A stretch of 64,000 bases of DNA from Myxococcales bacterium (GCA_016720545.1 JADKKK010000003.1:537516-601515); one strand, 5' to 3'. Counted from the stretch's first letter, positions 1 through 64,000 are shown. Program-made: numbers and translations. Notes: generated by a model from the sequence alone, not told the origin.

Positions 1-422
1 TCGCGGACGCGGAGCGAGGGGACCGTGGCCGCCCGCCTGACGTCGGCGTCGCGGACGAAGGCCTCGAGGTCGACCTCGCGCGAGGGGTTGGCGGTGGCCA
101 GCGCGTGCGCGCGGGCCTCCGCGATCGGCAGGGGCTCGACCAGCACTTCTCCGGTCGGCTGGGTCTTGTCGCGCACACGCTGAGGCACGCCCGCGCCGCC
201 CGAGAAGCGCGCGTTCTTCGCGCCGGCCGAGTCGGGGCGCTCGGGGATCGCGGGCGTGCCTCGCGCGGCGTCGAGCAGCTCGTCGAAGTAGCCGTCCGGC
301 ACCGGCGCCTCCGAGGGATGCCCGCCCTGCAGCAGCGCGGGGCGCCCGGGCGCCGTGTCGAGCAGCTCGCTCGGCAGGTTCTCTTCGCCGGGAAAGGGCT
401 TGGTCTTCATGGGCGGGTTCAT
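1..422 (-). CDS. hypothetical protein (5' part of gene; 3' end lies outside the window)
   Basis: Minus-strand reading frame open to the window edge, with in-frame ATGs at 422 and 410 (MNPPMKTKPFPGEENLPSELLD...). GC3-rich codons. No recognisable domain. Confidence 0.4.
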   Translation of the reverse strand, partial: MNPPMKTKPFPGEENLPSELLDTAPGRPALLQGGHPSEAPVPDGYFDELLDAARGTPAIPERPDSAGAKNARFSGGAGVPQRVRDKTQPTGEVLVEPLPIAEARAHALATANPSREVDLEAFVRDADVRRAATVPSLRVR

Positions 423-17584: not shown

Positions 17585-19084
17585 GTGGAAGACCTCCCCG
17601 ACACCGCCTACCGACGCACCCTCGATCGCTACGCGCTCTACGGCGAGATCGCGGCCGGGGGGATGGCGCGCGTCCATTTCGGGCGAGTGCTCGGCGCGCA
17701 GAGCGTGCCGCGCGTGGTCGCCATCAAGTGCCTCCTGCCCGAGCTCGCGGTCGACCCCACCTTCGTCCGCATGTTCCTCGCCGAGGGCCGGCTCGCGTCG
17801 CGCGTTCGGCACCCGAACGTCGTCGCGACCCACGACGTCGTGTCGCTGCCCGCCGGCGCGGAGGGCTCGCCCGGCCAGCTCTTCCACGTCATGGAGTACG
17901 TGGCGGGTGACTCGCTGTCGCGGCTGGTGCGCAAGTCGCGCGAGCGCGGCGTCCCGGTGCCACCGCGCGTCGCGGTGAGCGTCGCGTGTGGCCTGCTCGA
18001 GGGGCTGCACGCGGCCCACGAGGCGAAGAGCGAGACCGGCGAGCCGCTCGGCCTCGTGCACCGCGACGTCTCGCCGCAGAACGTGATGGTCGGCGTCGAT
18101 GGCCTCGCGCGCGTGCTCGACTTCGGCGTCGCCACGGCGACCCACCTCGTGGACGAGGCGCCCGACCAGATCAAGGGCAAGGTCGGCTACATGGCGCCCG
18201 AGCAGCTCGCGCACGAGGGGGTCGATCGGCGGACCGACCTGTACGCCGCCGCCGTGGTGCTGTGGGAGACGCTCACGGGTCGACGCCTCTTCAAGGCCGA
18301 CAACCTCTCCGCCCTCATCGTGAAGGTGATGGCCGATCCGGTGGAGGTACCCAGCACCTACGCAGACGGAATCCCTAGCGATATCGACATGATACTCATG
18401 AAGGCGCTCTCGCGCGACGTGCGCGATCGGTGGACGACCGCGCGCGAGCTCGCGGTGTTGCTGGAGGGCGCGCTGCCGCCGGCGCCGGCGCGCGACGTGG
18501 GCGCGTGGGTCGAGGAGGTCGGCGGAGACCGCCTGCGGTACCGGGCCGAGGTCGTCGCGGCGATCGAGGCGCAGTCGATCGCCCACCTGAAGGTGCCGAG
18601 CGCGGCGCGCTCGCTCGGGCGCATCACGGTCGAGAGCGCGAGCTCCGATCTGACCGGCCTCGACGCGGACGCGCTGCCGGGCGCCGTCGAGCAGGCGCTC
18701 GCCAGCGATCCGCAGATCAAGGCCGTCATGCTGCGCCGCTCGCAGCCGCTCTTCGGGGCCGAGCCGTCGACGTCCAGGCTCCCTCAGCTTCAGGCCGGGC
18801 GCGCGAATCCCTGCGCGCCGGAGCGCGGGCAAGAGCCGCCGCCCGGGGCGCAAGCGACTCTTGGGGCCGCGCCCGTCGCGCCCGTCGCGCCCGTCGCGCC
18901 CGCGCCGTTCGCGCCGGTCGTGGACACCCCCGCTCCGACCCCACCGCGACCGCAGCCCGCGCGCGCTGCCAAGCGTGGCCTGAGCAGCGGCGCGCGCTCG
19001 GCGCTCCTCGCCCTCGGGGTGCTCGTGCTCATCGTGTGCGCGGCCTACGCGGGGCTCACCCTCGGCAGGATCGATCCGCCGTAG
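17585..19084 (+). CDS. Hanks-type serine/threonine protein kinase with C-terminal TM anchor
   Basis: GEIAAGGMARVHFG..VAIKCL, HRDVSPQNVMV, DFGVA and APEQ motifs. A Pro/Ala-rich linker, then a TM segment ALLALGVLVLIVCAAYAGL. GTG start. Confidence 0.85.
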   Translation: MEDLPDTAYRRTLDRYALYGEIAAGGMARVHFGRVLGAQSVPRVVAIKCLLPELAVDPTFVRMFLAEGRLASRVRHPNVVATHDVVSLPAGAEGSPGQLFHVMEYVAGDSLSRLVRKSRERGVPVPPRVAVSVACGLLEGLHAAHEAKSETGEPLGLVHRDVSPQNVMVGVDGLARVLDFGVATATHLVDEAPDQIKGKVGYMAPEQLAHEGVDRRTDLYAAAVVLWETLTGRRLFKADNLSALIVKVMADPVEVPSTYADGIPSDIDMILMKALSRDVRDRWTTARELAVLLEGALPPAPARDVGAWVEEVGGDRLRYRAEVVAAIEAQSIAHLKVPSAARSLGRITVESASSDLTGLDADALPGAVEQALASDPQIKAVMLRRSQPLFGAEPSTSRLPQLQAGRANPCAPERGQEPPPGAQATLGAAPVAPVAPVAPAPFAPVVDTPAPTPPRPQPARAAKRGLSSGARSALLALGVLVLIVCAAYAGLTLGRIDPP

Positions 19085-24816: not shown

Positions 24817-25233
24817 TCAGTCGTGAGAGTGCGCCGCGTCGGTGGCGGCGTCCGCCTGGGGCTTCGCGTCGGTCGCGGCGTCGCCCGAGCCCGCGTCGGC
24901 GGTCACCGGCGGCGCGGCCTTGCAGAGCGCGAGGCAGGAGTCCTTCTTCGCCACGCACGCCTCGTCGCTCGTCGCCGACTCCGCCGCTTCGTGGCACTCG
25001 TGGATCTGCCCGGTGCCCGGATCGACCGGGTGGCAGGCGTCGATGATGGCGAGGCACGTGGCGAACGAGGTCGTCCCGTGGGAGTGATCGTCCGAGCACC
25101 CCGCCCCGACGACGAGGGCCATGGTCGCGAGGGCGGAGGCGAAGAGCAGGGAGCGCAGGGAGCGCAGGGAGCGCAGGGAGCGCAGGGAGCGCAGGGAGCG
25201 CAGGGAGAACGAGGCGAGCGACGGCGACTTCAT
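24817..25233 (-). CDS. Cys/His-rich lipoprotein (putative metal-binding), with SLR-repeat signal peptide
   Basis: MKSPSLASFSLRSLRSLRSLRSLRSLRSLLFASALATMALVVGAGCSDDHSHG... The mature part has 9 Cys and HxH/CH pairs (IDACHP, HECHEAA, DAAHSHD). Confidence 0.5.
   Translation of the reverse strand: MKSPSLASFSLRSLRSLRSLRSLRSLRSLLFASALATMALVVGAGCSDDHSHGTTSFATCLAIIDACHPVDPGTGQIHECHEAAESATSDEACVAKKDSCLALCKAAPPVTADAGSGDAATDAKPQADAATDAAHSHD
25145..25210. repeat. 9-bp tandem repeat (AGCGCAGGG x7) inside the signal-peptide coding region
   Basis: Perfect tandem copies. On the minus strand they encode (SLR)n. Confidence 0.85.
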
Positions 25234-25260: not shown

Positions 25261-25359
25261 CTACCCATGCGACCCGTTGTCGCACCATGTTCCTGCCGTG
25301 CTCCCTTCGGTCGCGTGGCCTAGGCACGCCGCTCGCCTGCGGCTCGCTTGCATGTTCAT
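25261..25359 (-). promoter_or_regulatory. copy A of conserved leader element / mini-ORF (MNMQASRRRAACLGHATEGSTAGTWCDNGSHG*)
   Basis: About 60 nt are near-identical to copy C: ATGAACATGCAAGCGAGCC-GCAGGCGAGCGGCGTGCCTAGGCCACGCGACCGAAGGGAG. It ends 28 nt upstream of the lipoprotein ATG at 25233. Confidence 0.5.
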
Positions 25360-31180: not shown

Positions 31181-33124
31181 ATGGGCTCCTCGACGTCGCG
31201 ACGCGCCGCCCGTGCGGTCGCCGTGGTCGGCGCGCTCGCCGCGTGTGCGGCGTGTGCGGCGTGCGGCAGAGGCGCGCGCGACGCACGGCCGGTGTACGCG
31301 ACGGCCAGCACGATGGAGGCGACGCTCGCCTTCGAGGAGCTGCGCGACGCGTGGGAGCGGCGCGACGTAGGCGCCGACCGTCAGCGCGAGGCGCTCGAGC
31401 GGCACCTCAAGCGCTTCCCGGGGGACGGGACGGCGACCACGGCGCAGCTCTACCTCGCGTTCCTGCTCATGCAGGCGGGCGAATATTACAAGGCCGACGC
31501 GCTGCTCGCGCTCCTCGAGTCGAACCCCAGGGCCCTGCGCGCCGGCCCGGAGCGCGACATGTTCGCCGTGGCGCGGGCCAAGTCGCTGCGGCACCGCGGC
31601 GCCCACCCGCAGGCGCTCGCGCTGCTCCAGCCGCTCGCCGGCAAGGCCGTCGACGAGACCCTCCGCGGCATCTTCCTCGAAGAGCTCTGCCTCGCGGCGC
31701 TCGGCGCTGGCGAGGACTACGAGGCGATCGGCTACATGGACGCCTGGCTGCGCGGGGTGTCCGAGGACAAGCGCGTCGCGAGCCGCGCGAAGATCGCAGC
31801 CGGCCTCGAGGGCATGCCGGCCGGCGTGCTCCAGGCCACCTACCGCGCCATGCGCACGGCCCAGCAGACCGGCTACAGCGCGGAGATCCAGCGCCTGGTC
31901 GCGATGAGGGTCGCCGCGATCGTCGTCCAGAACGAGGACGCGACGCTCGCGCGATGGCTCCTCGACGTGACGCCCGGGGGATCCGACGCGCTCGGCGACT
32001 CGGGCCCCACGATCCTCGAGCTCGCCGCGAGCCGACGAGGCCTCCGCGAGGTGCAGGGCCGCACCGTCGGCCTCTTGCTCTCCACGGGCGACGCGGAGCG
32101 CCGAGAGGCCGCCGCCGCCGTGCTCCGCGGGGTCTCTTGGGCCCTCGAGCTCCCGAAGGCGCCGGCGGCGCGCACCGACCCGCTCCGCCTCGTGGTGCGG
32201 ACCGACGCGAGCGAGGGCAAGGGGTTGGCCTCCGACCTGGCGATGGAGGAGCTCTTCGGCGAGGGCGCCGGGGTGGTGCTCGCCGGCCTCGATGGGCGCT
32301 CGGCCGACCACGCGCTCAAGTGGGGCGAGGACCACGGCCTCCCGGTCGTTCTCCTGCATCCCCCCGCGCGCCAGCCAGTCCCCACCCAGGCGGGCTACGT
32401 GATCGGCGAAGCGCGGGCGACGCAGGCCGCCATGCTCGCGCGCGCGCTGGCCCCGCTCGGCGATCGGCGGGTGCAGCTGCTCACCACCTCGCGGGGGAAG
32501 GGCCGCGACGCGCTCGAGGCGGCCCTGGCGCTCGGCGGACTCGGCAGGGCACGTGAGACGGTCGACTGCGACGCCGAGGCGCCGCGCCCGGGCATGCCGC
32601 GATTCCCCTTCGAGGCCTGGGCGAAGGAGCGCGTCCGCACCTTCGTGGTCGCGGGCGCGAGGGAGTGCCTGACCGACACGCTGGCCGAAATCAAGCTCGC
32701 GACGCGTGGCGCCGCCGCCGGTCCAAGACCGCTCGTCGGCGTGGTGCTCGACACCGAGCCGCCCGCAGAGCCCTCCCCTGCCCCCGCGCCGCGGGTGTTC
32801 GCCGTCAGCGCGGGCATCCTGCCGCTCGAGCGGGACCGCGTCGCCGCCCTTGGTGATCCGGAGGTCGCTGCATATTACAACGAATTCGGTCAGGTGCCTG
32901 GGTGGTGGGCCGCGCTCGGGCGCGACGCGGGGATCCTCGCGCGCCAGGCCGTGAGCGTGCTGCCCTCGAACACCACGGCAGACCCCAAGGCGGTCGCCCA
33001 GCGCCACGCGATCGTCGCCGCCGCGCTCGGCCGAGCGCAGGCGCCTTTGTGGACCACCGAGGCCAGCGGCTTCGCGGGCCAGCGCGTGCTCTCGCGCTCA
33101 CTGCGGGTCGTGGAGCTGAAGTAG
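31181..33124 (+). CDS. secreted hypothetical protein
   Basis: Signal MGSSTSRRAARAVAVVGALAACAACAACG. 647 aa, Ala/Leu-rich, with TPR-like helical content likely. The start is trimmed from 30992. Divergent from sdhC. Confidence 0.55.
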   Translation: MGSSTSRRAARAVAVVGALAACAACAACGRGARDARPVYATASTMEATLAFEELRDAWERRDVGADRQREALERHLKRFPGDGTATTAQLYLAFLLMQAGEYYKADALLALLESNPRALRAGPERDMFAVARAKSLRHRGAHPQALALLQPLAGKAVDETLRGIFLEELCLAALGAGEDYEAIGYMDAWLRGVSEDKRVASRAKIAAGLEGMPAGVLQATYRAMRTAQQTGYSAEIQRLVAMRVAAIVVQNEDATLARWLLDVTPGGSDALGDSGPTILELAASRRGLREVQGRTVGLLLSTGDAERREAAAAVLRGVSWALELPKAPAARTDPLRLVVRTDASEGKGLASDLAMEELFGEGAGVVLAGLDGRSADHALKWGEDHGLPVVLLHPPARQPVPTQAGYVIGEARATQAAMLARALAPLGDRRVQLLTTSRGKGRDALEAALALGGLGRARETVDCDAEAPRPGMPRFPFEAWAKERVRTFVVAGARECLTDTLAEIKLATRGAAAGPRPLVGVVLDTEPPAEPSPAPAPRVFAVSAGILPLERDRVAALGDPEVAAYYNEFGQVPGWWAALGRDAGILARQAVSVLPSNTTADPKAVAQRHAIVAAALGRAQAPLWTTEASGFAGQRVLSRSLRVVELK

Positions 33125-33183
33125 ACGAGCTGACGTAGACGAGCTGACGTAGACGAGCTGACGTAGACGAGCTGACGTAGACG
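33121..33183. repeat. 14-bp tandem repeat GTAGACGAGCTGAC x4.6
   Basis: Perfect copies spanning the stop codon of the upstream gene. Every unit contains TAG and TGA. Confidence 0.85.
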
Positions 33184-33216
33184 AGGCGCGATCCTGGGGC
33201 CCAAGCCGTGACTGCG

Positions 33217-33954
33217 TCAGCGCGCGGCCTCCGCCGAAGCGTCGACCACCACCAGCCGGTACGACGCCATGTCGAGGTGAAAGTGGTCCGCGTGGCCCGG
33301 GTAACCCGGGCCGAGCACCACGCGAAACAGCGACGTGTCCCGCGCGAGCCGGAGCGCGAGGCGGTGCAAGAAGCGGCGGTGCAGCGCGCGCACGGGAGAC
33401 TCACGCCCACGGGCCGCCCCGACCGCCCCGAAATGGGCGGCCACGCTCACGTCGAAGGCGCCTCGGAGCGCGCGCGGCGCGCCGGCCGGCAGCGCCGCCC
33501 CAGGGGGCAGCGCGCCGAAGCTGAAGGCGTCGACGTCGATGGCGTTGCCGAGGCCATGCTCGCTCACCAGGTGGGGATACGCCGGGATGCGCCGGCAGTT
33601 GAAGGTCCCCAGGTGGTGCATGCGGATCGGCGGGCGCCCGTACACCTCGATCGCCACGGCGCGCGCGGCGTCCTCGAGCCCGCGGAGCTTCGCGACGAAC
33701 GCCGGGTGCACGCGGGCCGGCGCGTGGAAGCGCAGCGCGCTGCCCGAGTAGTCGGTGAGCGGCATGGCGGGGCAGCGCACCGGCCCCCGCGCGGGGATCT
33801 CCCGCGAGACCTCGTCGAGCGCGTAGGTGTCGTCGGCGCGCGCAGGCGATGTGTGAAGCGCGAAGCCGAGGACGACCGACGCGGCGACCGGAGCGATGCG
33901 TGCGACCGACGCGACCGACGCGACCGACGCGACCGACTGGTTCAGGAGGGTCAT
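33217..33954 (-). CDS. extensin-like C-terminal domain family protein, secreted
   Basis: Signal MTLLNQSVASVASVASVARIAPVAASVVLGFALHTSPARA. C-terminal region with the conserved Cys/His pattern of the bacterial extensin-like family. Contains a 9-bp repeat (GCGACCGAC x4) encoding SVASVASVA. Confidence 0.5.
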   Translation of the reverse strand: MTLLNQSVASVASVASVARIAPVAASVVLGFALHTSPARADDTYALDEVSREIPARGPVRCPAMPLTDYSGSALRFHAPARVHPAFVAKLRGLEDAARAVAIEVYGRPPIRMHHLGTFNCRRIPAYPHLVSEHGLGNAIDVDAFSFGALPPGAALPAGAPRALRGAFDVSVAAHFGAVGAARGRESPVRALHRRFLHRLALRLARDTSLFRVVLGPGYPGHADHFHLDMASYRLVVVDASAEAAR

Positions 33955-37554: not shown

Positions 37555-37604
37555 GATAGCGGAAGTGGAGGCCGACCGTGCCCCCGGGGACCGTTTCGTC
37601 GGTT

Positions 37605-37643
37605 CTAGCCGCGCCGCTCGCCCGGGCTCGCTTGCATGTTCAT
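37605..37643 (-). promoter_or_regulatory. copy B of conserved leader element / mini-ORF (MNMQASPGERRG*)
   Basis: ATGAACATGCAAGCGAGCCCGGGCGAGCGGCGCGGCTAG... is shared with the copies at 25261-25359 and 40846-40914. It lies 51 nt upstream of the thioesterase start, in the same orientation as that gene. Confidence 0.5.
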
Positions 37644-37758
37644 GGCGAGACCTCGCCTTCGGCTCGGGCACGCCATCGACCTTGGTTCGCCCCTTCGGGG
37701 CTCACTTTCAGGTTCCTCTTGTCAACCCTGGAGAAAGAGTCCTAAACCCGCATCCACC

Positions 37759-38944: not shown

Positions 38945-39439
38945 CTAGATCATCTCGAAGTACCGCGAGTGGATCGCCACGGTCACGAGGACCGCCACCT
39001 CGCGCGGCACACCGTCGGCCGCCTCCACCACGAAGCGATCCCGCACGTGCGTGAGGCCCTCGCGCTTCTTCACCTCGATGGCCACCTTGCCGGCGGCGTC
39101 GGCGCACCTGAAGTCGTACTCGAGCGCGAGCACGCCCGCGTCGGCGGTGTAGGTCTCGCTTCCCACCTTGAGCGCGAGGGTCTTCTTGAACGCGATCGAC
39201 GGGAAGGTCACGCTCGCGACCTCCTTGCGCTCGCCGTCGAGCACGTGGAACGCGGTCTTGTTGAAGTTGCCCTCCAGGCTCGCGAGCTCCTTGTCGCTCC
39301 CGTCGACGATGGCGAACCGCGGCGTGAGGCTCATCGGCGCGCCGCGCACGGTGAGCGCCACGTCTTCTTTGCCCTTTTCGCGCACGTCGTACGTCGTCGC
39401 GACGGCCGCCAAGCGCTGAACAACCTCGTACTGACCCAT
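38945..39439 (-). CDS. LURP-one-related / tubby-like (DUF567) family protein
   Basis: 164 aa. Composition and spacing resemble the LOR/DUF567 family by eye. The assignment is tentative. Confidence 0.45.
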   Translation of the reverse strand: MGQYEVVQRLAAVATTYDVREKGKEDVALTVRGAPMSLTPRFAIVDGSDKELASLEGNFNKTAFHVLDGERKEVASVTFPSIAFKKTLALKVGSETYTADAGVLALEYDFRCADAAGKVAIEVKKREGLTHVRDRFVVEAADGVPREVAVLVTVAIHSRYFEMI

Positions 39440-39453
39440 GGTGGTACCTTTCT

Positions 39454-39525
39454 CGTGTCGCTCGTGTCGCTCGTGTCGCTCGTGTCGCTCGTGTCGCTCG
39501 TGTCGCTCGTGTCGCTCGTGTCGCT
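39454..39525. repeat. 9-bp tandem repeat CTCGTGTCG x8 (CGACACGAG on the minus strand), immediately upstream of a start codon
   Basis: Eight perfect copies. They end 15 nt upstream of the ATG at 39439, in the divergent intergenic region shared with livK. Confidence 0.9.
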
Positions 39526-39663
39526 CGTCGTAGGGGTTCGCGGCGACGCGTGACCGCTTTGCGGCGGCGCTCGCGCACGGTCACGAGCAGCGTACGGGCG
39601 CCGAGGCGCCGCGGGGAACAAATCTCCACGGTTTCGTGGTACCCGTCCATGCCTGGAGGGATC

Positions 39664-40818
39664 ATGCTCACTCGCCGAAGGTTCACGCTCTCGCTCGCCA
39701 CGCTCGGCCTCGTGGTCGTCGCCGCCGCCGGCTCCACCGGCTGCGAGAAAAAGAGCGACGATCTCGTGGTCGGCGCGTTCCTCTCGCTGTCCGGCAGCGA
39801 CTCCACCTTCGGCACCGACACCCGCGACGGCATCGAGCTCGCGCTCGACGAGACCAACAAGGCCGGCGGCGTGAAGGGCAAGAAGGTCAAGGTCCTTTAC
39901 GAGGACGACAAGTCTCTCCCGCAAGAGGCGTCGAACAAGGTCCGGCAGCTCATCGACCGCGACAACGTGCTCGCGATCCTCGGCGAGGTGGCGTCGAGCC
40001 GCACGATGGCCGGCGGTCTCATCGCGAACACGAAGAAGGTGCCGCTCGTCACGCCTTCGTCCACGGCGGTCGAGGTCACGAAGGACCGCGAGTACGTCTT
40101 CCGCGTGTGCTTCACCGACGACCAGCAGGGCGACGTCGCGGCGCGCTTCGTGTTCGAGACCCTCAAGAAGAAGAAGGTCGGCCTCTTCTTCGCCGCCCAA
40201 GACAACTACTCGTCCGGCCTGGCGGCCTCTTTCAAGGAGCGCTTCGTGAAGCTCGGCGGCCAAATCGTCGTCGACAAGGGGTTTCAGAAGGGCGAGACGA
40301 ACTTCACGACCTACCTCTCCGAGCTGAAGTCGAAGGACCCGGAGGTCATCTTCGTACCTGTATACTACAACGACATGGTGCAGATCGCGCGGCAGGCCAA
40401 GCAGGCCGGCATCCCCGGCACCACGTTCGTCGGCGGCGACGGCTGGGACTCGGCGGAGCTCACGGAGGGTGCGGGCGCGGAGCTCGAGGGCGCCTACTTC
40501 ACGAACCACTACGCGCCAGACGTACCGTGGAAGAACTCGGCGGCCTTCGTGACCGCGTTCAAGGCCCGCTTCAACCGCGAGCCGACGAGCCTCGCGGCCC
40601 AGGGCTACGACGCCGCGAAGCTCCTCTTCGACGCCATCAAGCGCGCGCCCGAGACCAACCGCGAGGCCATCAAGGTGGCGCTCGCCGACACGAAGAACTT
40701 CGAGGGGGCCACCGGGCAGCTCACGATCGACAAGAACCACAACGCGAACAAGCCCATCGTCGTGGTCCAGATCAAAGGCAAGAAGTTCAAGTTCACGACC
40801 CAGCTCATGAGCCAGTAG
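39664..40818 (+). CDS. livK: branched-chain amino acid ABC transporter substrate-binding lipoprotein
   Basis: RBS GGAGGG, then ATG at 39664. Signal and lipobox LVVVAAAGSTGC. LivJ/LivK (periplasmic-binding type I) family similarity throughout. Confidence 0.85.
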   Translation: MLTRRRFTLSLATLGLVVVAAAGSTGCEKKSDDLVVGAFLSLSGSDSTFGTDTRDGIELALDETNKAGGVKGKKVKVLYEDDKSLPQEASNKVRQLIDRDNVLAILGEVASSRTMAGGLIANTKKVPLVTPSSTAVEVTKDREYVFRVCFTDDQQGDVAARFVFETLKKKKVGLFFAAQDNYSSGLAASFKERFVKLGGQIVVDKGFQKGETNFTTYLSELKSKDPEVIFVPVYYNDMVQIARQAKQAGIPGTTFVGGDGWDSAELTEGAGAELEGAYFTNHYAPDVPWKNSAAFVTAFKARFNREPTSLAAQGYDAAKLLFDAIKRAPETNREAIKVALADTKNFEGATGQLTIDKNHNANKPIVVVQIKGKKFKFTTQLMSQ

Positions 40819-40845
40819 GCGGAAGGCTCGGGGCCCGGTCACACG

Positions 40846-40914
40846 ATGAACATGCAAGCGAGCCTCCGGCGAGCGGCGTGCCTATGCCACGCGACCGAAG
40901 GGAGGAAGGCATGA
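40846..40914 (+). promoter_or_regulatory. copy C of conserved leader element / mini-ORF (MNMQASLRRAACLCHATEGRKA*)
   Basis: ATGAACATGCAAGCGAGCCTCCGGCGAGCGGCGTGCCTATGCCACGCGACCGAAGGGAGGAAGGCATGA. The mini-ORF stop overlaps the livH ATG (ATGA). GAAGGGAGG doubles as the livH ribosome-binding site. Confidence 0.5.
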
Positions 40915-41816
40915 AGATCCTCGAAGCGCTCGTCACCGGGCTCACGCAGGGCGCGATGATCGCGCTCGTCGCGCTCGGGTACACGATGGTGTACGGCGTG
41001 CTGAAGCTCATCAACTTCGCCCACAGCGAGGTCTTCATGATGGGCGCGTACATTGGCGTCTTCGTGCTCGGCGCCGTGGGCATCTCGAACCCCTTGTTCG
41101 CTGGCGCCTGCGCGACCGTGGTCGCCATGATCGGCGCGTCCCTCATCGGCATCACCGTCGAGCGGGTCGCCTACCGGCCGCTCCGCGGGCGGGGCAAGGG
41201 CGCGCTCGTGCGCATCACGCCGCTCGTGACGGCGCTCGGCGTCTCGGTGCTCCTCCAGAACGCCGCGCAGCTCTTCTTCTCGGCGCGGTTCCGGTCGTAC
41301 CCGCAGCTCATCGCCGGCAGCGTGCAGGTGCCGGGGGTAGGCCCGGTCGGCACGTCCCGCGTGCTCATCCTCGTGGTCGCCGTGGCGGTCATGGTGGGCC
41401 TCGAGCTCATCGTGAAGAAGACGTGGTTCGGCAAGGCGATGCGCGCGCTCTCCTCCAACGAAGAGGCCGCGCGCCTCATGGGCGTGCACACCTCCCGCGT
41501 CATCTCGACCACCTTCGCGCTCGGCTCGTCGCTCGCGGCGCTCGGCGCGGTCCTCTACTGCCTCGATCAGTCGCAAGCCTACCCCACCATGGGCGTCGTC
41601 ATCGGCACGCGCGCGTTCGTGGCCGCGGTGCTCGGCGGCATCGGCAGCATCCCCGGGGCCATGCTCGGCGGGCTGCTCCTCGGCGTGGTCGGCGAGCTCG
41701 TGAAGCTCACCGATTACTCGGGCGGCGTCGACGTGCTCGTGTTCGTCGTGCTCATCGCCGTGCTGCTCGTCCGCCCCGCGGGCCTGTTGGGCTCGACGCG
41801 CGCCGAAAAAGTGTAG
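40911..41816 (+). CDS. livH: branched-chain amino acid ABC transporter permease
   Basis: MKILEALVTGLTQGAMIALVALGYTMVYGVLKLINFAHSE is a typical LivH N-terminus. Eight hydrophobic segments. No livM/G/F follows. Confidence 0.85.
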   Translation: MKILEALVTGLTQGAMIALVALGYTMVYGVLKLINFAHSEVFMMGAYIGVFVLGAVGISNPLFAGACATVVAMIGASLIGITVERVAYRPLRGRGKGALVRITPLVTALGVSVLLQNAAQLFFSARFRSYPQLIAGSVQVPGVGPVGTSRVLILVVAVAVMVGLELIVKKTWFGKAMRALSSNEEAARLMGVHTSRVISTTFALGSSLAALGAVLYCLDQSQAYPTMGVVIGTRAFVAAVLGGIGSIPGAMLGGLLLGVVGELVKLTDYSGGVDVLVFVVLIAVLLVRPAGLLGSTRAEKV

Positions 41817-41961
41817 CGCACCTGTATCGTCCTGTTCACGCCTCGGCCGCGCAACCGCCCAGCCTGCCGCGTGATGGCGTCGGCCCAGACCTTGCTCTTG
41901 GGAGCCCACCCCCGCGCGCCTCGCTCGCCGAGCGGTCCCGCGCTACCTTGTCGAGGCGCCC

Positions 41962-43056
41962 ATGTCCGCTCATCGTCACGCCGCTCGCCGCCACGCCGCA
42001 CCTCATCGTCCCCCCGCGCGAGTGCGCTCGCGGCTCGCGCTCCTCCTCGTCGCCTGCGGGCTCACGGCGGCGACCCCGGCCGCCGCGCTGCCGCCGCTGC
42101 CCGGGCCCGCGGGGCCAGGCGGCGCAGCCCCGACCGCTCCGACGGCTCCCACGACGACGCCCGCCCTCGGGGCGGCCGCGAACCCGGCCGACCGGGCCCG
42201 CCGCGGCGTGGTCGCGGTCGAGCTTCAGGGCAAGCCCGTCGCCATCGGCACGGTGCTCGCCAACGATGGCCGAATCCTCACCGCCCTCTCGGGCCTGACA
42301 GGGATGGGCACCGCCGAGACCGTGCAGGTGCGCTACGCGGACGGCTCCGCGGTGGCGGCCAAGGTCGGCCACAAAGACGCCGACTGGGACCTCGCGCTCC
42401 TGGTTCCTCAGGCCATCAAGTGGAAGGAGGGCCTCTCCGCGAGCGACATCGAACCGAACGCCACCGATCTCCGCCTCGTGCTGCCGCTGCGCGGAAAGCT
42501 CGGCCCGATCCCGGTGGGGCTCAAGGGACGCACCGACGCGAAGTCGCGGGCCGGCGCGCCGCTCCTGAACACGCTCGACCTCGACATGAAGGGCGCCCTC
42601 GCGGTGCCCGGCGCGCCCGTGCTCGACAGCCGGGGCAACGCGGTCGGGCTGCTGGTGCACGCCTGCCAGGTGCGCTCCACGGCCCGCTGCGCGCCCGTGT
42701 CCGTAGGCGCGCCGATCTCCGCCATCCGCACGTTCCTCATGCGCACGCCGGCCACGGCGGTCACCCCGCAGCCGTGGCTCGGCCTGCGAGGTGCGCCGTC
42801 GCAGGCCGGGAGCATCAAAGGGGTCCGCGTGTTGGCGCTCGCGCCCCACTCGCCGGCGGAGCGGGCCGGCCTCAAGGCGAGCGCAGAGCCCGAGGGCGGC
42901 GACATCATCGTCGCGGTCGACGGCACCCCCGTCGAGACGCCGGAGCAGCTCGCCGACGCCATCGGCCGCAAGTCGATCGGCGACTCGGCCAAGCTGCTCG
43001 TCTTCGACGGCGCGAAGTTCCGCGAGGCGCCCGTCACGCTCCGCCCCGCGCCGTGA
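41962..43056 (+). CDS. HtrA/DegP-like trypsin-fold + PDZ domain protein, catalytic residues apparently not conserved
   Basis: Signal RLALLLVACGL. The DegP-like core aligns by eye: the Asp motif DWDLALLV is conserved, but the His position reads TALSG and the Ser position reads PGAPV instead of GNSGG. A C-terminal PDZ-like region (GVRVLALAPHSPAERAGLKA..GDIIVAVDG). Confidence 0.55.
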   Translation: MSAHRHAARRHAAPHRPPARVRSRLALLLVACGLTAATPAAALPPLPGPAGPGGAAPTAPTAPTTTPALGAAANPADRARRGVVAVELQGKPVAIGTVLANDGRILTALSGLTGMGTAETVQVRYADGSAVAAKVGHKDADWDLALLVPQAIKWKEGLSASDIEPNATDLRLVLPLRGKLGPIPVGLKGRTDAKSRAGAPLLNTLDLDMKGALAVPGAPVLDSRGNAVGLLVHACQVRSTARCAPVSVGAPISAIRTFLMRTPATAVTPQPWLGLRGAPSQAGSIKGVRVLALAPHSPAERAGLKASAEPEGGDIIVAVDGTPVETPEQLADAIGRKSIGDSAKLLVFDGAKFREAPVTLRPAP

Positions 43057-52411: not shown

Positions 52412-53815
52412 TCAGTACCAGAGGCCCCAGGTCCAGTTCCAATCGTAGTAGTCGCGGGCCACGTCGAGGTTCACGCCCAGGCGAAACGGCACGGCCGAGT
52501 CCCACAGATGGAACACGTGGGACTCGAACACGTGGGCCTCGAGCCCCACTGTGGTGTGGAGTCGCGGGGACGACTGCGCGAAGCGCGTCGGCTCGAGGTA
52601 GGCGCCCGCGCGAAGCCAGAGCCAGTTCGGTAGGGCCTCGGTCTCGACGCCGAGGCGAGGCGTGAACGACGCGTGCCGCCCCGACCGATCGACCCGCTGC
52701 GCGAGGAACGACTCCATGCCCACCGCGTTGACCGTGGGACCGGTGATCATGAAAGAGGTCGTGAGGAGGAGCTTGGGGCGCGGGAAGCGCACGCGTCGCT
52801 GCTGCTCGTACCGGTTGATGAGCACCTGGCGCGTGTCGTCGGGCGACGTGCGAAAGCGCTCGAGCTCGGCCCGGGGGATGGTGCGCGGATCGAGCCAGCG
52901 AACGTTGAGCGGCCGCTCGCCGAGCTGCACGGCGACCCCCCACTCGAGCTCCCATGGGCGCTCGATGGCCCGCGGCAGGTACATGGCGCCTACGCGCAGA
53001 TCGCCCGCGGCGTCGGGCTCGATGTCGCTGCTCGTGGCCTTGCCGACGACGGGCGCGCGGGCGGCCGCCCCGACGCGGAGCTGGTGTGCCCTCGGCGCCC
53101 ACAAAAAGCCAAGCTCGGGGGCGAGGCCCGCCATGGTGAGGAGCCCCTCCGTGCCCGGCACGGCGGTAAGCTCGGACTGGCCAGAGTCGCGGAGCGTGAG
53201 CAGCGCGCCCCGCAGACCGAACCCTAGGTGCACCTCGTCGTCGAGGCTGTAGCCCGCCATCAAGTGAAGGGAGGCGAGGCGCACCGAGGCGCTCTTGATG
53301 ACGGGCGCGCCCCCAATGCGACCGAGCTCGTACTGCTGGACGTCGAGCGCGACCCCGATGCCGAGCGGGCCCTCTTGCACGTAGCCGCTCGTGGAGAGGA
53401 AGACGAAGTCGTTGTAGGCGAAGCCCTTGGTGCCGTTGTTGTCGAAGTCGGTCGTGCCGAGTTGGCTTGGGAAGCGCCACTCGATGCCGGCGTTCCAGTC
53501 GGTCACGGAGTGCGACGAGGGGTAGCGCACGGCCGGCGTCGCGGGGTTCGCGGTCATGATGTCCGCACCCGCCGCCAGCGCGACGACCGAGCCGCCGACC
53601 GCGGTGACGCGGGACGAGCCGATGAGCGGCCCCTGGAACAGGTCGATCGTGTAGCTGCTCGTCGTGATGGGCGAGCCCTGCGCGCCGAGCGGGCCGCCCG
53701 CGTGCGCAGGCGAGCCCACGAGCACCAGCAGCACCGCCAGCGCGAGCGCGGGCACGAGGCCGGACACGATGCGTGGTAGCGACCAGGTTCGCACGGCGAG
53801 CGCGGAAGATAGCAA
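52412..53815 (-). CDS. secreted/outer-membrane hypothetical protein (paralogue of 54088-55548)
   Basis: Signal VPALALAVLLVLVGSPAHA. Ends in aromatic GLWY. Shares blocks GPLG.QG.P..TS.YT.DLFQGPL..S.RVT, RGFAY.NF.F, LNV.WLD and PRLGVETEA with the downstream paralogue. Confidence 0.55.
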   Translation of the reverse strand: MLSSALAVRTWSLPRIVSGLVPALALAVLLVLVGSPAHAGGPLGAQGSPITTSSYTIDLFQGPLIGSSRVTAVGGSVVALAAGADIMTANPATPAVRYPSSHSVTDWNAGIEWRFPSQLGTTDFDNNGTKGFAYNDFVFLSTSGYVQEGPLGIGVALDVQQYELGRIGGAPVIKSASVRLASLHLMAGYSLDDEVHLGFGLRGALLTLRDSGQSELTAVPGTEGLLTMAGLAPELGFLWAPRAHQLRVGAAARAPVVGKATSSDIEPDAAGDLRVGAMYLPRAIERPWELEWGVAVQLGERPLNVRWLDPRTIPRAELERFRTSPDDTRQVLINRYEQQRRVRFPRPKLLLTTSFMITGPTVNAVGMESFLAQRVDRSGRHASFTPRLGVETEALPNWLWLRAGAYLEPTRFAQSSPRLHTTVGLEAHVFESHVFHLWDSAVPFRLGVNLDVARDYYDWNWTWGLWY

Positions 53816-54087
53816 GCTTCAGTGTCCGGCGGGGCGGTACGCGGCGGCCGAGGTCCGCGGCCGCTCGGCGCGGCGAGCGCCCGGGCGCCACGGCTTGGGT
53901 TGGTTAGCACACCTGCGAGACTTCATTCTCGCAGTGGTGGTAGTTGGCCGCGGGAGCGGACAAGCCGGAGGGTGAATCGGCCAGCTTTGTGGCCGAGAGG
54001 GGCGCCGCGCCCCCTACGGGACAGGGCTAGCACTACTGCCGTTCGCGCAGCGAACTGCGTAGCGAGAGGGAACCTCTCGCAGTACTG

Positions 54088-55548
54088 CTAGTTCCAAATG
54101 CCCGCGGTCACGCTCCAGCCGAAGTACTCACGAGCGAAGTCGAGCGAGCCGCCGATGCGAAACGGCAGCGGGTCCTCGTAGAGGCCGAACACGTCGGAAG
54201 AGAAGGTCTTCAGGTCCATGCCGACGGTGCCGTGGAGTCGGCGCGCGCCGCCGCGAAATCGCGTGGGCTCGGAGTAGGTGCCGGCGCGAAACATCATGCG
54301 GTTTGGCCACGCCTCGGTCTCGACGCCCAGGCGCGGCGTGAGCGAGACCCGCTCGCCCGAGCGATCGATCTGCCCGGCGAGGAACGACTCGAGCCCTACG
54401 GCGTTCGCGACGGGGCCGGTCGCGGTGAACGAGATCGAGAGCAGGAGCTTCTCGCGCGGCAGCCGCTCGTAGGCGCGCCGCCCCATGCGCGAGACCACCG
54501 CGGAGCGCGGCTCGTCCGGGGTCTTTCGGTGCGACTCGACCACCTCGTGCTGCACCGCCGTCGAGTCGAGCCACTTCACGTTGAGCGGGCGCGGCCCGAG
54601 CTGCACCGCCACGCCCCACTCGATCTGCCAGGGCACCTCGACGCGGTCGGGGAGGTAGAGCTTGCCGAGCCGGCGATCGCCGGAGGCGTCGACCACGGTC
54701 GTGTCTCCGGGGATGAGCTGCCCGGCGACCGGCGCGCGCAGCGAGAGGCCCATGCGGAGCGGGAGCCGCAGCGGCGCCCACAGCGCGCCCACCTCGGGGC
54801 CGACGCCGGCCATGGTGAGCACGCCGCGCAGGTCGGTGATGCTCGAGAAGCCGATGCCCGAGAGCGCCGCGTCGCGGAGGGTGAACAGCACGCCGCGCAG
54901 GCCGCCGCCGATCGTGAGCTCGTCGCCCACGGCCGTGGCCGCGAGGAGCCGGGCCTGCACGAGGCGAAACGCCACGCTGGAGACGCCCTCCGCGCCGGTC
55001 GTCGCGCCGAGGTCGTACTGCTGCACATCGACCGTGGCGCCGAGCCCGAACGGCCCCTGCTGGACCTGCCCCGCCATCGTCACGAAGAAGAAGTTGTCGT
55101 AGGCGAAGCCGCGCTTGCCGTTGTTGTCGTAGTCGAGGTCGCGGATCCCGCCCGGGAGCGTGAGGCCCGCGCTGATGTCGAACTCGGTCACCGAGCGCGA
55201 CGACGCCGTGCGCACCGCGGGCGAGGCCGCGTTGAACGCGTGCATGTCGATGCCCTCCGCGAGCGGCGCGACGGCGCCGGCGAGGCCCGTGACGCGGTTC
55301 GACGCGGCGAGCGGCCCCTGGAACAGATCGACCGTGTAGCGGCTGGTGTCGAGCGGCGCGCCCTGCCGGCCGAGCGGCCCGGCGGCCTCCGCGGGGGTCA
55401 CCGCGAGCGTGACCAGCAGGGCGAACGCCTGGGAGGCCCACGTGCGCAGGCGCCCCCGCGCCCCACCTCGCGACCGGTGCGGGTCACCCCTTCCGATCCT
55501 CGCGCAGGGCACGCGCGAGTGCGCGCGGGCGGATCGGAGGCCTTCCAC
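54088..55548 (-). CDS. secreted/outer-membrane hypothetical protein (paralogue of 52412-53815)
   Basis: Signal ASQAFALLVTLAVTPAEA. The true start is probably internal to the track ORF. Ends in GIWN. The paralogy blocks are listed under the previous feature. Confidence 0.55.
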   Translation of the reverse strand: MEGLRSARAHSRVPCARIGRGDPHRSRGGARGRLRTWASQAFALLVTLAVTPAEAAGPLGRQGAPLDTSRYTVDLFQGPLAASNRVTGLAGAVAPLAEGIDMHAFNAASPAVRTASSRSVTEFDISAGLTLPGGIRDLDYDNNGKRGFAYDNFFFVTMAGQVQQGPFGLGATVDVQQYDLGATTGAEGVSSVAFRLVQARLLAATAVGDELTIGGGLRGVLFTLRDAALSGIGFSSITDLRGVLTMAGVGPEVGALWAPLRLPLRMGLSLRAPVAGQLIPGDTTVVDASGDRRLGKLYLPDRVEVPWQIEWGVAVQLGPRPLNVKWLDSTAVQHEVVESHRKTPDEPRSAVVSRMGRRAYERLPREKLLLSISFTATGPVANAVGLESFLAGQIDRSGERVSLTPRLGVETEAWPNRMMFRAGTYSEPTRFRGGARRLHGTVGMDLKTFSSDVFGLYEDPLPFRIGGSLDFAREYFGWSVTAGIWN

Positions 55549-57258: not shown

Positions 57259-58461
57259 ATGCGAGCTCTCCTCTACAGCGCGGCGTGCACCCTCGGACTT
57301 CTTTCGCTCGGGCTCGGCGCGTGCAGCGACGGGCCAACCAGCGCCCCCGGGAGCTCCGACGACTCGATCATCGGCGGCGTGGACGCGACCGGGGCCAAGC
57401 TGAACGCGATCGGCACGGTGGGCCACAAGGCGTTCGACGACACCTTCGACTACTTCTGCACGGCGACGCTCATCGCGCCGACGGTGGTGCTCACGGCCAA
57501 GCACTGCGCGGCCCGCGACCCGAAGAGCGGCCACACGATGCTCGACGAGGAGCCCATCTACTTTGCGGTGGGGCCCGACAGCACCAAGCCGCTGAAGACC
57601 GTCCGGGTGAAGAGCGTGCTCCTCGCGCCGGTGCACGACGCGGGCTTCGTCAGCCTCGGGTCGGACGTGGCGCTCTATTTCCTCGAGGCGCCCATCGACG
57701 ACATCACGCCGCTACGCGTCGACGGCGCGCTGCTCAGCGAGTCGAAGGTGGGCCAGAAGTTCACCGCCGTGGGCTTCGGCGTGCACGATCGGGAGCGCAA
57801 CTCGGGGCAGCGCAAGGCCGGGCAGCTCACCCTGCAAGGCGTGAGCGGCAAGCCGGTGCAGAGGGTGTTCCCCACCTACGAACAGTTCGCGGCGTTCATC
57901 GCGAAGCACGACGGCGAGGACTACGTAAAAGCGCAGGAAGAGCGCATGAAGAAGTTCTACGACCTCGAGCTCCTGAAGGGGTACGAGGCGTACCTCGGCC
58001 TTGGCGACAACGACGCGCAGCCGTGCAGCGGCGACTCTGGCGGGCCGCTGCTCGCGCGGGTGAAGGACGAGAACGTGGTCGTCGCGGTGGTCTCAGGGTC
58101 GTTCAAGGGCCGCACCTACCCCTGCAGCGTCGTCGGCGAGGTCTACGCCACCATCGGCCCGCGGGTGATCGATCTGCTCGACAGCGCCGCGCCCGAGTGC
58201 GCGGGCGTGCCGGTGTGGGGCACCTGCGACGCCACGAACAAAGTGGCCACTCGGTGCGTGTCGAAGAAGGAAGGTCCGCAGCGCGTGAACAAGATCGACT
58301 GCTCGGCGCTCGGGCAGGTGTGCAAGATCAACGCGGAGAACACGGCGTTCTGCGACGACCCCGAGGCGCCGCCGCCGCCGCCCCCGCCCCCGCCGGCCGA
58401 CGCGGGCCCCAGCGACGCGGGCCCCAGCGACGCGGGCCCCAGCGACGCGGGCCCGGGCTGA
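57259..58461 (+). CDS. S1 (trypsin-like) serine peptidase lipoprotein
   Basis: Lipobox LLSLGLGAC. Catalytic triad motifs TAKHC (His), DVAL (Asp region), GDSGGPL (Ser). C-terminal (PSDAG)3 tail. Confidence 0.8.
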   Translation: MRALLYSAACTLGLLSLGLGACSDGPTSAPGSSDDSIIGGVDATGAKLNAIGTVGHKAFDDTFDYFCTATLIAPTVVLTAKHCAARDPKSGHTMLDEEPIYFAVGPDSTKPLKTVRVKSVLLAPVHDAGFVSLGSDVALYFLEAPIDDITPLRVDGALLSESKVGQKFTAVGFGVHDRERNSGQRKAGQLTLQGVSGKPVQRVFPTYEQFAAFIAKHDGEDYVKAQEERMKKFYDLELLKGYEAYLGLGDNDAQPCSGDSGGPLLARVKDENVVVAVVSGSFKGRTYPCSVVGEVYATIGPRVIDLLDSAAPECAGVPVWGTCDATNKVATRCVSKKEGPQRVNKIDCSALGQVCKINAENTAFCDDPEAPPPPPPPPPADAGPSDAGPSDAGPSDAGPG

Positions 58462-60120: not shown

Positions 60121-60152
60121 CCTCACGGGCGTGCGCTCCGGCATCGCCACGC

Positions 60153-60196
60153 GGGTGCGCGCGTGCGCGGGTGCGCGGGTGCGCGGGTGCGCGGGT
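60153..60196. repeat. 8-bp tandem repeat GTGCGCGG x5, immediately upstream of a lipoprotein gene
   Basis: GTGCGCGC GTGCGCGG GTGCGCGG GTGCGCGG GTGCGCGG, ending 15 nt before the ATG at 60211. Confidence 0.85.
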
Positions 60197-60210
60197 GGTA
60201 GACTGGCTCC

Positions 60211-63596: not shown

Positions 63597-63860
63597 GGGG
63601 GGGGGGGTCCCCCCCGGGGGGGGGGGGGCCGCCGCCCCCCCCCCGGGGGGGGGGGGGGGGGGCCGCGGGGGGGGGGGGGGGGGGGTGTGCGGGGGCGGGG
63701 GGGGGGCGCCCGGGGGGGCCACCCCCCCCCCCCCCCGCCCCCGGGGGGGGCGCCCCCCCCCCCCCGGGGGGGGGGGGGGGGGGGGGGGGGGGCGGCCCCG
63801 CCCCCGGGGGGGGGCCCCCCCCCCCCCCCCCGGCCCCGGAGGGGCGACCCGGGCCGGGAG
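63597..63860. repeat. ~265-bp block composed almost entirely of alternating long poly-G and poly-C runs, flanked by 10-bp inverted repeats
   Basis: Runs such as G11, C7, G13, C11, G20, G23 and C16, with very few A/T, then an A7 tract. Flanks GCTAGTCCCC (63587-63596) and GGGGACTAGC (63875-63884). It begins ~20 nt upstream of the S51 peptidase start codon. Confidence 0.8.
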
Positions 63861-64000
63861 AAAAAAAGACTCCAGGGGACTAGCAAATCAGCCGCTGCCA
63901 CGAGCGCGGCGACGGCGATCCGAGAACCATGCCCGCGAGGCGACCACCGAGCGCAGAGCCCCTCCCATGACCCTCAAAGTGAGCAACGAAGGGGCGGCGG

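Follow-up and report, generated by a model that had tools for sequence, protein, structure and literature searches.

The window analyzed here is a 64,000-nt stretch of DNA from a Myxococcales bacterium, in which two plus-strand genes encode a LivK-like periplasmic binding protein and, downstream of it, a LivH-like ABC permease (coordinates and supporting evidence for all features are collected in Table 1). The space between the two genes holds a 22-codon mini-ORF that begins 27 nt past the TAG of the livK-like gene and whose TGA (40912-40914) overlaps the livH-like ATG (40911-40913), an overlap that the first-pass annotation had described and that we confirm; the plus strand from 40846 to 40914 reads ATGAACATGCAAGCGAGCCTCCGGCGAGCGGCGTGCCTATGCCACGCGACCGAAGGGAGGAAGGCATGA. 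LivH homologs of 301 to 302 aa have their starts called at the same Met as ATG 40911. The livH-like gene is followed by genes for a trypsin-PDZ protease, a PP2C phosphatase, and an alpha/beta hydrolase, a synteny kept in relatives, and a reading of the neighboring genes revealed no livM, livG, or livF adjoining it.

Two features of the surroundings stand apart from the mini-ORF. The pair formed by a LivK-like gene and a single LivH-like gene (window positions 39664-41816; loci L035, L041, L043, and L044) is conserved without an adjacent LivM-type second permease or LivG/LivF ATPases, making it an orphan or incomplete ABC importer arrangement, and in several relatives the trypsin-PDZ protease and PP2C phosphatase come after it. 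In addition, a perfect 9-nt tandem repeat (CTCGTGTCG, 8.6 copies, 39452-39528) lies between the start of a minus-strand gene (39440) and the livK-like gene; its length could vary, affecting the livK promoter or 5′ UTR.

Table 1. Features of the livK-livH locus, further repeat units in the window, conserved blocks of the type-1 unit, and livK-livH junctions compared
Feature	Coordinates	Strand	Description or evidence
LivK-like periplasmic binding protein gene, 384 aa from ATG 39664	39664..40818	+	Pfam Peripla_BP_6, E 3e-69; ortholog 384 aa
Mini-ORF, 22 codons + stop	40846..40914	+	translation MNMQASLRRAACLCHATEGRKA, then stop; in-frame ATGs 40846 and 40852
Copy C, 65-nt type-1 repeat unit	40846..40910	+	nhmmer 72.6 bits; empty orthologous sites
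Left ATGA	40846..40849	+	presumed original livH start (ATG + first base of codon 2); now opens the mini-ORF
3′ hairpin	40883..40913	+	40883-40896 pairs with 40901-40913; TATGCC/GGCATG (start codon included) + inner CC/GG; SD inside
SD-like GGGAGG, unit-borne	40900..40905	+	5 nt before livH-like ATG
LivH-like ABC permease gene, 301 aa	40911..41816	+	Pfam BPD_transp_2 (LivH/LivM-type permease family), E 1.2e-38
Copy A, type-1 unit	25295..25359	-	90% identical to copy C over 73 nt
Copy B, truncated/diverged type-1 unit	37592..37643 (~37592)	-	5′ half conserved, 3′ half diverged; upstream of 4HBT thioesterase gene
Type-2 unit, 74 nt	37644..37717	-	nhmmer 77 bits; directly 5′ of copy B; start codon decayed to AGG
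Type-1 unit, 5′ and 3′ blocks			5′ block ACATGCAAGCGAGCC; 3′ block CCGAAGGGAG...NTGA
Conserved block	unit positions 1-19		ATGAACATGCAAGCGAGCC; alignment of units
Conserved block	unit positions 23-32		GGCGAGCGGC; alignment of units
Conserved block	unit positions 49-59		ACCGAAGGGAG; alignment of units
Window livK-livH junction			filled: ...CAGTAG GCGGAAGGCTCGGGGCCCGGTCACACG ATGA[ACATGC...GGAAGGCATGA]AGATCCTCGAAGCG
L041/L042 junction			LivH 97%; empty: ...CAGTAG GCGGCGGGCTCGCGCGACC ATGAAGATCCTCGAAGCG
L043 junction			LivH 95%; empty
L035 junction			LivH 88%, same synteny; empty
L039 junction			LivH 82%; empty

The first-pass annotation had also taken the mini-ORF for copy C of a repeated element, and correctly so: copies A and B bring the type-1 units in the window to three, and no match to the 69-mer of copy C is expected in shuffled sequence. 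Beyond the window, we found about 20 further copies, all in Polyangiaceae/Myxococcales MAGs and metagenomes. A scan of one genome per GTDB species with the invariant 19-mer ATGAACATGCAAGCGAGCC gave eight matches, six of which are real loci, all in MAGs named Polyangiaceae or “Myxococcales”; the matches in a gammaproteobacterial MAG (L003) and in Massilia (L006) have the seed alone in common with the unit and were set aside as chance. A degenerate pattern applied to JGI metagenomes added 26 loci, among which three (L009, L015, and L022) are the copy A and copy C loci of the window itself, independently assembled. The livH locus is identical in two of these metagenomes (L015 and L022), and the insertion is therefore not an assembly artifact. 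The same type of pattern search gave zero matches in viral contigs, by which we reject carriage by phages. The window as a whole has no match in Rfam 15 at gathering thresholds, an E-value scan of 40700-41050 produced only a chance-level snoRNA match (E 7.5), and a tRNA/tmRNA scan found none. Nor did the open-access literature, searched for the unit's sequence, for MIRU-like elements, and for myxobacterial interspersed repeats, yield an earlier description of the unit, which is weak evidence of absence.

The type-1 unit is 65 nt long and consists of three conserved blocks separated by variable stretches. Its 3′ end carries an SD (GGGAG, invariant across 17 aligned units), a 5-nt spacer, and NTGA, and its frame 1 runs from the unit's own 5′ ATG to the TGA within that NTGA. 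At all 16 independent junctions, complete units end exactly at the ATG, GTG, or TTG of a long ORF, and every copy is oriented with the downstream gene. The base following the start codon (+4) is A in 16/16 of these junctions, compared with 12/29 called genes of related loci; the probability of such a run is roughly 0.41^16, about 6e-7, if the junctions are independent. The genes abutted by units are functionally diverse, their Pfam assignments including a metallo-beta-lactamase-fold hydrolase, PilN, a PurC-PurE fusion, a porin, an NAD-dependent epimerase, an AcrB-type pump, and an MFS transporter, and since the Epimerase and ACR_tran profiles begin at residues 3 to 4, the starts that units abut are true starts. 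Read by eye, the right flank is ATGAA in 11/16 junctions, which hints at a slightly longer target or at microhomology. We identified no transposase, terminal inverted repeats, or other mobility machinery, and the RNAalifold consensus fold contains no pairing between the 5′ and 3′ ends of the unit.

On the upstream side, the relation to the preceding gene takes several forms. The TGA of the upstream gene overlaps the first ATG of the unit chain in L001, L005 (pilM-pilN), and L027, and such overlaps on both sides indicate that an original ATGA stop/start overlap was split by the unit and rebuilt on each of its flanks. Elsewhere, the gap from the upstream stop to the first unit is 9 nt (L034), 27 nt (copy C), or about 46 nt (purH-purC), and in one case (L024) the units lie in a 5′ UTR, after a divergent gene.

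Whether copy C belongs to the ancestral organization of the locus can be read from its relatives. We retrieved LivH homologs together with their contigs and compared the livK-livH junctions with that of the window; the closest homologs come from organisms named Polyangiaceae or Labilithrix. Junctions at LivH identities of 82 to 97% are empty (Table 1). The L041 empty site reads ...GCGCGACC ATGA AGATCCTCGAAGCG, versus ...GTCACACG ATGA[65 nt]AGATCCTCGAAGCG in the window, and the empty junctions of L043, L035, and L039 have spacers of 12 to 39 nt and an ATGA start. Moreover, L042 comes from the same MAG (CAZHGG01) as L004, a locus that does have the element, at purH-purC. Together, the empty relatives and this shared MAG mark the 65 nt of copy C as a recent insertion, now lying between two ATGA motifs, in a lineage in which the family is dispersing. 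Because ATGA is present on both flanks, the inserted 65 nt can equally be written as 40850-40914. We are very confident that copy C arose by insertion and belongs to a family of short repeats dispersed in uncultured Polyangiaceae, and the presence and absence of units at orthologous sites, combined with their dispersal, indicate that this family is probably mobile.

LivH homologs of 339 to 344 aa had been suspected of hiding an in-frame element. The two that were checked (P0010/L037, 340 aa, region L037/L038 2501-2620; P0005/L044, 344 aa, region L044 1501-1630) instead have a genuine extra N-terminal transmembrane segment: the extension, about 40 aa with a hydrophobic segment, begins 2 nt past the stop of the binding-protein gene and takes up the room of the short spacer. 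It is a different solution at the same junction and not the repeat.

The empty sites also bear on the function first proposed for the mini-ORF, namely, that of a leader peptide dedicated to the liv genes and exerting attenuation-like, Leu/Ile/Val-responsive control over the permease. What speaks for such a leader is its position right before a LivH-like gene and the stop/start overlap, and nothing else that we found; every other line of evidence runs the opposite way. The peptide MNMQASLRRAACLCHATEGRKA contains two Leu, zero Ile, and zero Val among its 22 residues. The plus strand from 39300 to 42100 has no terminator-like site, the sole conserved hairpin of the unit ending at the start codon without a T-run, and the element sits between the binding-protein and permease genes as opposed to ahead of the operon. 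The same unit precedes pilN, purC, the epimerase gene, and the RND pump gene, and livK-livH orthologs of 82 to 97% identity lack it. We consider a liv-specific leader to be very improbable, and neither attenuation nor a response to branched-chain amino acids is supported for copy C: the element has no specific tie to these amino acids.

A second reading, that the mini-ORF encodes a functional small protein, fares equally poorly. The frame is open in all complete units, as such a protein would require, but open frames come cheaply in sequence this rich in GC, and tandem copies and truncated 11-codon versions of the mini-ORF both exist. Across 22 units, entropy at codon positions 1, 2, and 3 is 0.605, 0.457, and 0.584, respectively, with no codon periodicity and no excess of variation at third positions; conservation follows nucleotide blocks, not codons. 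The peptide is thus not conserved as a protein, we regard it as having no function in itself, and the chance that it acts as one is very slight.

The 3′ end of the unit carries a conserved hairpin. In the RNAalifold consensus of 17 units, columns 38-43 (TATGCC) pair with columns 63-68 (GGCATG, start codon included), with inner pairs at columns 46-47/59-60 and 50-51/56-57 and with the SD inside. Taking the helix alone, 94% of cells are paired, versus 33 to 45% when the partner is slid by 1 to 3 columns, and the covariation score is 0.361, versus 0.112 in shuffles, none of which (0/500) reach the observed value. Double changes occur at four pairs (CG/GC/AU at 42-64, CG/GC at 43-63, UA/AU at 40-66, and CG/GC/GU at 46-60), counts that are inflated by the shared descent of subfamilies, such that independent events are fewer than cells and the TTG type is probably one lineage. 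The presence of both U-G and G-U pairs implies that the hairpin forms on the sense strand. Copies of the TTG-start subfamily (L027, L032, and L034) share subfamily-specific bases together with a compensating A at hairpin column 40, which indicates an element-borne NTGA on the 3′ side and, on the 5′ side, an ATGA that was the start of the host gene before insertion.

Energetically, the hairpin is moderately stable. In single copies, it folds at -12.7 to -16.8 kcal/mol, with z scores of -1.8 to -2.9 in four of the five tested; for copy C, the values are -12.7 kcal/mol and -2.1, and in the L005 copy tested, the hairpin is not the minimum free-energy structure. When whole units are folded, copies A, B, and C do not differ favorably from shuffled sequence (z of +0.1 to +0.7). 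A 5′ hairpin is also predicted (columns 6-10/31-35 and 17-19/23-25), but these columns hardly vary and are hence uninformative. A sigma-54 site or palindromic operator in the 5′ block, considered by eye, was rejected: the palindrome TTGCATG-N2-CATGCAA occurs in copy A alone, and the -24/-12 spacing does not fit.

The covarying 3′ hairpin, which surrounds a GGA-containing SD and the start codon, could also be the operator of a dispersed cis-regulatory RNA, bound by a trans factor (a CsrA-like protein or an sRNA) or responding to temperature, with the unit-bearing genes forming a post-transcriptional regulon. The very strong conservation of the 5′ 19-mer would sit comfortably with such a role, but the downstream genes are functionally unrelated, near-identical orthologous loci lack the element, and the number of tandem units varies, which would be odd for an operator. 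Considering as well that the unit matches no Rfam family and that no factor has been identified, we judge a regulon of this kind to be improbable.

The organization of units into arrays provides further information on the reading frames. Units are single or tandem, and tandem units are linked by NTGA overlaps. Tandem arrays are present at purH-purC in three organisms (L004, L008, and L021), with differing numbers of units, and also at pilM-pilN (L005) and at the 5′ end of the epimerase gene (L024). A second type of unit, 74 nt in length, shares significant similarity with the type-1 unit across the first ~34 nt (2/2000 shuffles) and has the same ATGAAC...|NTGA layout; it either precedes type-1 units or abuts a gene start itself. 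A 32-nt variant is the product of an internal deletion between GCGGCATG direct repeats. Division by 3 leaves a remainder of 2 for the lengths of 65, 32, and 74 nt, and each such unit consequently has its own ORF, whose TGA overlaps the next NTG, whereas the 42-, 66-, and 81-nt variants are exact multiples of 3, and their frame continues into the unit that follows. Tracing by script from start to stop to overlapping start, we obtained unbroken ORF chains leading into a gene start for copy C of the window and for L001, L004, L005, L008, L021, L024, L026, and L027; the chain is broken solely in decayed copies that abut no start (copies A and B of the window and L013). On the L008 contig, arrays flank the PurC-PurE fusion gene at both ends, its TGA being overlapped by the GTG of another type-2 array (1987-2059).

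These chains bear on the choice between a working coupling cassette and a passive footprint of insertion, under which NTGA targeting would be purely mechanistic, the ATGA a duplicated target, the livH-like gene initiated de novo at the SD of the element, and the mini-ORF not meaningfully translated. Several observations are compatible with a mere footprint: GGGAGG at 5 nt from the ATG is a good stand-alone RBS, the mini-ORF of copy C has no SD of its own, the first ATG has been lost in L019, L025, and L029 (GCG/GAG), and the peptide is not under selection. A target-site footprint alone, however, does not predict that the 32-, 42-, 66-, and 81-nt variants, products of internal deletion or duplication, and the 74-nt type 2 all keep the frame relation and the chains. 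Furthermore, every one of the 17 aligned units retains the second in-frame ATG, at positions 7-9 (among 22 units, the diverged first unit of the L008 array is alone in lacking it, with CATCC), and the enclosure of SD and start within a conserved hairpin argues against free de novo initiation. On balance, we regard a passive footprint as unlikely, though deserving of more weight than either a regulatory RNA or a functional peptide.

Copies A and B of the window are decayed, and neither abuts a start. The chain of copy A is broken; its 3′ junction is AGGA rather than ATGA and is followed by ~61 nt of degenerate unit-like sequence that extends up to the ATGA (25233) of a small lipoprotein gene. 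The chain is likewise broken in copy B. At the very end of the window, positions 63969-64000 (ATGACCCTCAAAGTGAGCAACGAAGGGGCGGCGG) resemble the 5′ part of the 74-nt type-2 unit (ATGAACCTCAAAGTGAGCCCCG.AGGGGCG) before running off the edge and are probably a fourth member of the repeat family in the window.

Several other sequence features were recorded in passing. Directly 5′ of the type-2 unit adjoining copy B, in the intergenic region between divergent Sdh_cyt-like and thioesterase genes, the minus strand has a consensus TTGACA (37720-37725), a possible promoter -35 element. Downstream of copy A, the small lipoprotein gene contains a perfect 9-nt repeat in the 5′ part of its coding sequence (GCAGGGAGC, 6.9 copies, 25146-25207, minus strand); translated as (LRS)n within the region of the signal peptide, it is a candidate for an in-frame VNTR. 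Other perfect tandem repeats of short period are found at 33113-33185, 33902-33937, 18868-18902, 58398-58454, and 60150-60197 (periods of 14, 9, 9, 15, and 8 nt, respectively), and the source genome appears unusually rich in exact microsatellite/minisatellite arrays. Positions 52581-55428 hold a tandem duplication of ~1.68 kb at ~71% identity (repeat families D4, D7, D13, and D14), presumably two paralogous genes. Lastly, an intergenic gap at 63597-63860 (~260 nt) consists almost entirely of alternating long poly-G/poly-C tracts and is self-complementary (arms 63629-63692 and 63719-63782, 80%); it may be either a genuine structure of G/C tracts or an artifact of sequencing or assembly.

The translational coupling to livH that the first-pass annotation had put forward is backed by comparison, and the comparison supports a stop/start overlap that would be designed and not accidental: every complete unit ends in NTGA at a real gene start, the frame relation is kept, the chains into gene starts are unbroken, and the hairpin covaries. 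We propose that ribosomes that formerly started livH, through reinitiation after livK or otherwise, would now start the mini-ORF at the old ATG, which at operon-internal sites directly follows the termination of the upstream gene. Translation of the 22 codons would carry them through the hairpin, unmasking the SD and the start codon; termination at the TGA would then be followed by reinitiation on the overlapping ATG, with help from the SD. Expression of livH would in this way stay dependent on upstream translation, and the insertion would be nearly neutral. Hairpin-gated coupling as the working mechanism is a proposal in which we place moderate confidence, and we consider the combination of a start-codon insertion at copy C with such coupling to be likely overall.

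Some practical consequences follow from the nature of the unit. Annotation of the mini-ORF as a regulatory leader of liv genes should be avoided. No stop separates frame 3 of the unit from the gene, and gene callers could therefore mis-extend N termini. Where unit numbers vary at a fixed locus, they could be used like VNTRs to mark strains of uncultured Polyangiaceae, and the family as a whole offers comparative material on whether translational coupling makes such insertions tolerable.

Among known systems, the classical leader-peptide attenuators of branched-chain amino acid operons are the ilvGMEDA, ilvBN, and leu leaders of enterobacteria. The Polyangiaceae unit is similar to these in that a short ORF closely precedes a branched-chain amino acid-related gene but differs in having neither a run of regulatory codons nor a terminator/antiterminator, in its location away from the 5′ end of the operon, in not being kept in orthologs, and in its occurrence before unrelated genes. 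With REP/BIME, ERIC, and Correia-type repeats and MITEs, the unit shares the properties of a short, nonautonomous dispersed repeat with hairpin potential, sometimes mosaic or tandem and sometimes affecting the expression of neighboring genes. Those elements, however, have no fixed orientation, are found mainly at 3′ ends or elsewhere in intergenic sequence, and are not tied to the start codon, whereas the Polyangiaceae units are co-oriented with the downstream gene, the complete ones end at NTG, and no terminal inverted repeats were seen. Engineered bicistronic designs and natural uORFs combine a short ORF, an ATGA overlap, and an SD inside coding sequence, delivering ribosomes regardless of local structure (PMC12548453); by comparison, the Polyangiaceae cassette is a naturally dispersed repeat and neither a locus-specific uORF nor a synthetic part.

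The closest parallel is with the MIRUs (mycobacterial interspersed repetitive units), whose described insertion sites are start codons and whose internal ORF is coupled to the gene at a spacing of -4 (PMC12548453; Supply et al. 1997); they are stated to be specific to mycobacteria (PMC6286618). As summarized in these sources, the two kinds of element are alike in being short (tens of bp), interspersed, and often present as variable-number tandem arrays; in occupying the intergenic spacers of operons, co-oriented with the genes; in having a small ORF whose stop overlaps the downstream start (ATGA); and in that both appear to insert at start codons with little effect on expression. In MIRUs, the start of the ORF often overlaps the upstream stop as well, as it does in L001, L005, and L027 among the Polyangiaceae loci. 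Their sequences, however, are unrelated: local alignment of the unit with MIRU motifs A (TGACGAGGAGCGGCGCAGATGGCA) and B (GGCGCCGGTGACGATGCAGAGCGTAGCGA) (PMC6286618) scores 16, versus a shuffle mean of 17.9, with 1481/2000 shuffles scoring at least as high and neither strand significant. The host also differs, being Myxococcota (Polyangiaceae) and not Mycobacterium, as do the unit sizes of 65 and 74 nt. The covarying hairpin, with the SD inside and the start codon paired, is carried by the Polyangiaceae unit. The unit thus works like a MIRU without being a member of the MIRU family.

That a sequence-unrelated family in another phylum has the same start-codon targeting and ATGA coupling suggests convergent insertion into gene-dense operons without polar effects. 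More broadly, and with somewhat less than even confidence, we put forward the view that an independently evolved mobile element of Myxococcota homes to translation starts (NTGA), bringing its own SD, start codon, and hairpin-gated termination-reinitiation cassette; such an element would colonize operon junctions and 5′ ends almost neutrally, and its variable-number arrays could tune downstream translation. If this is true, then the Polyangiaceae unit and the MIRUs together would represent a general, convergent “start-codon parasite” strategy, for which the Myxococcota provide a fresh system in which to find the mobilization machinery.
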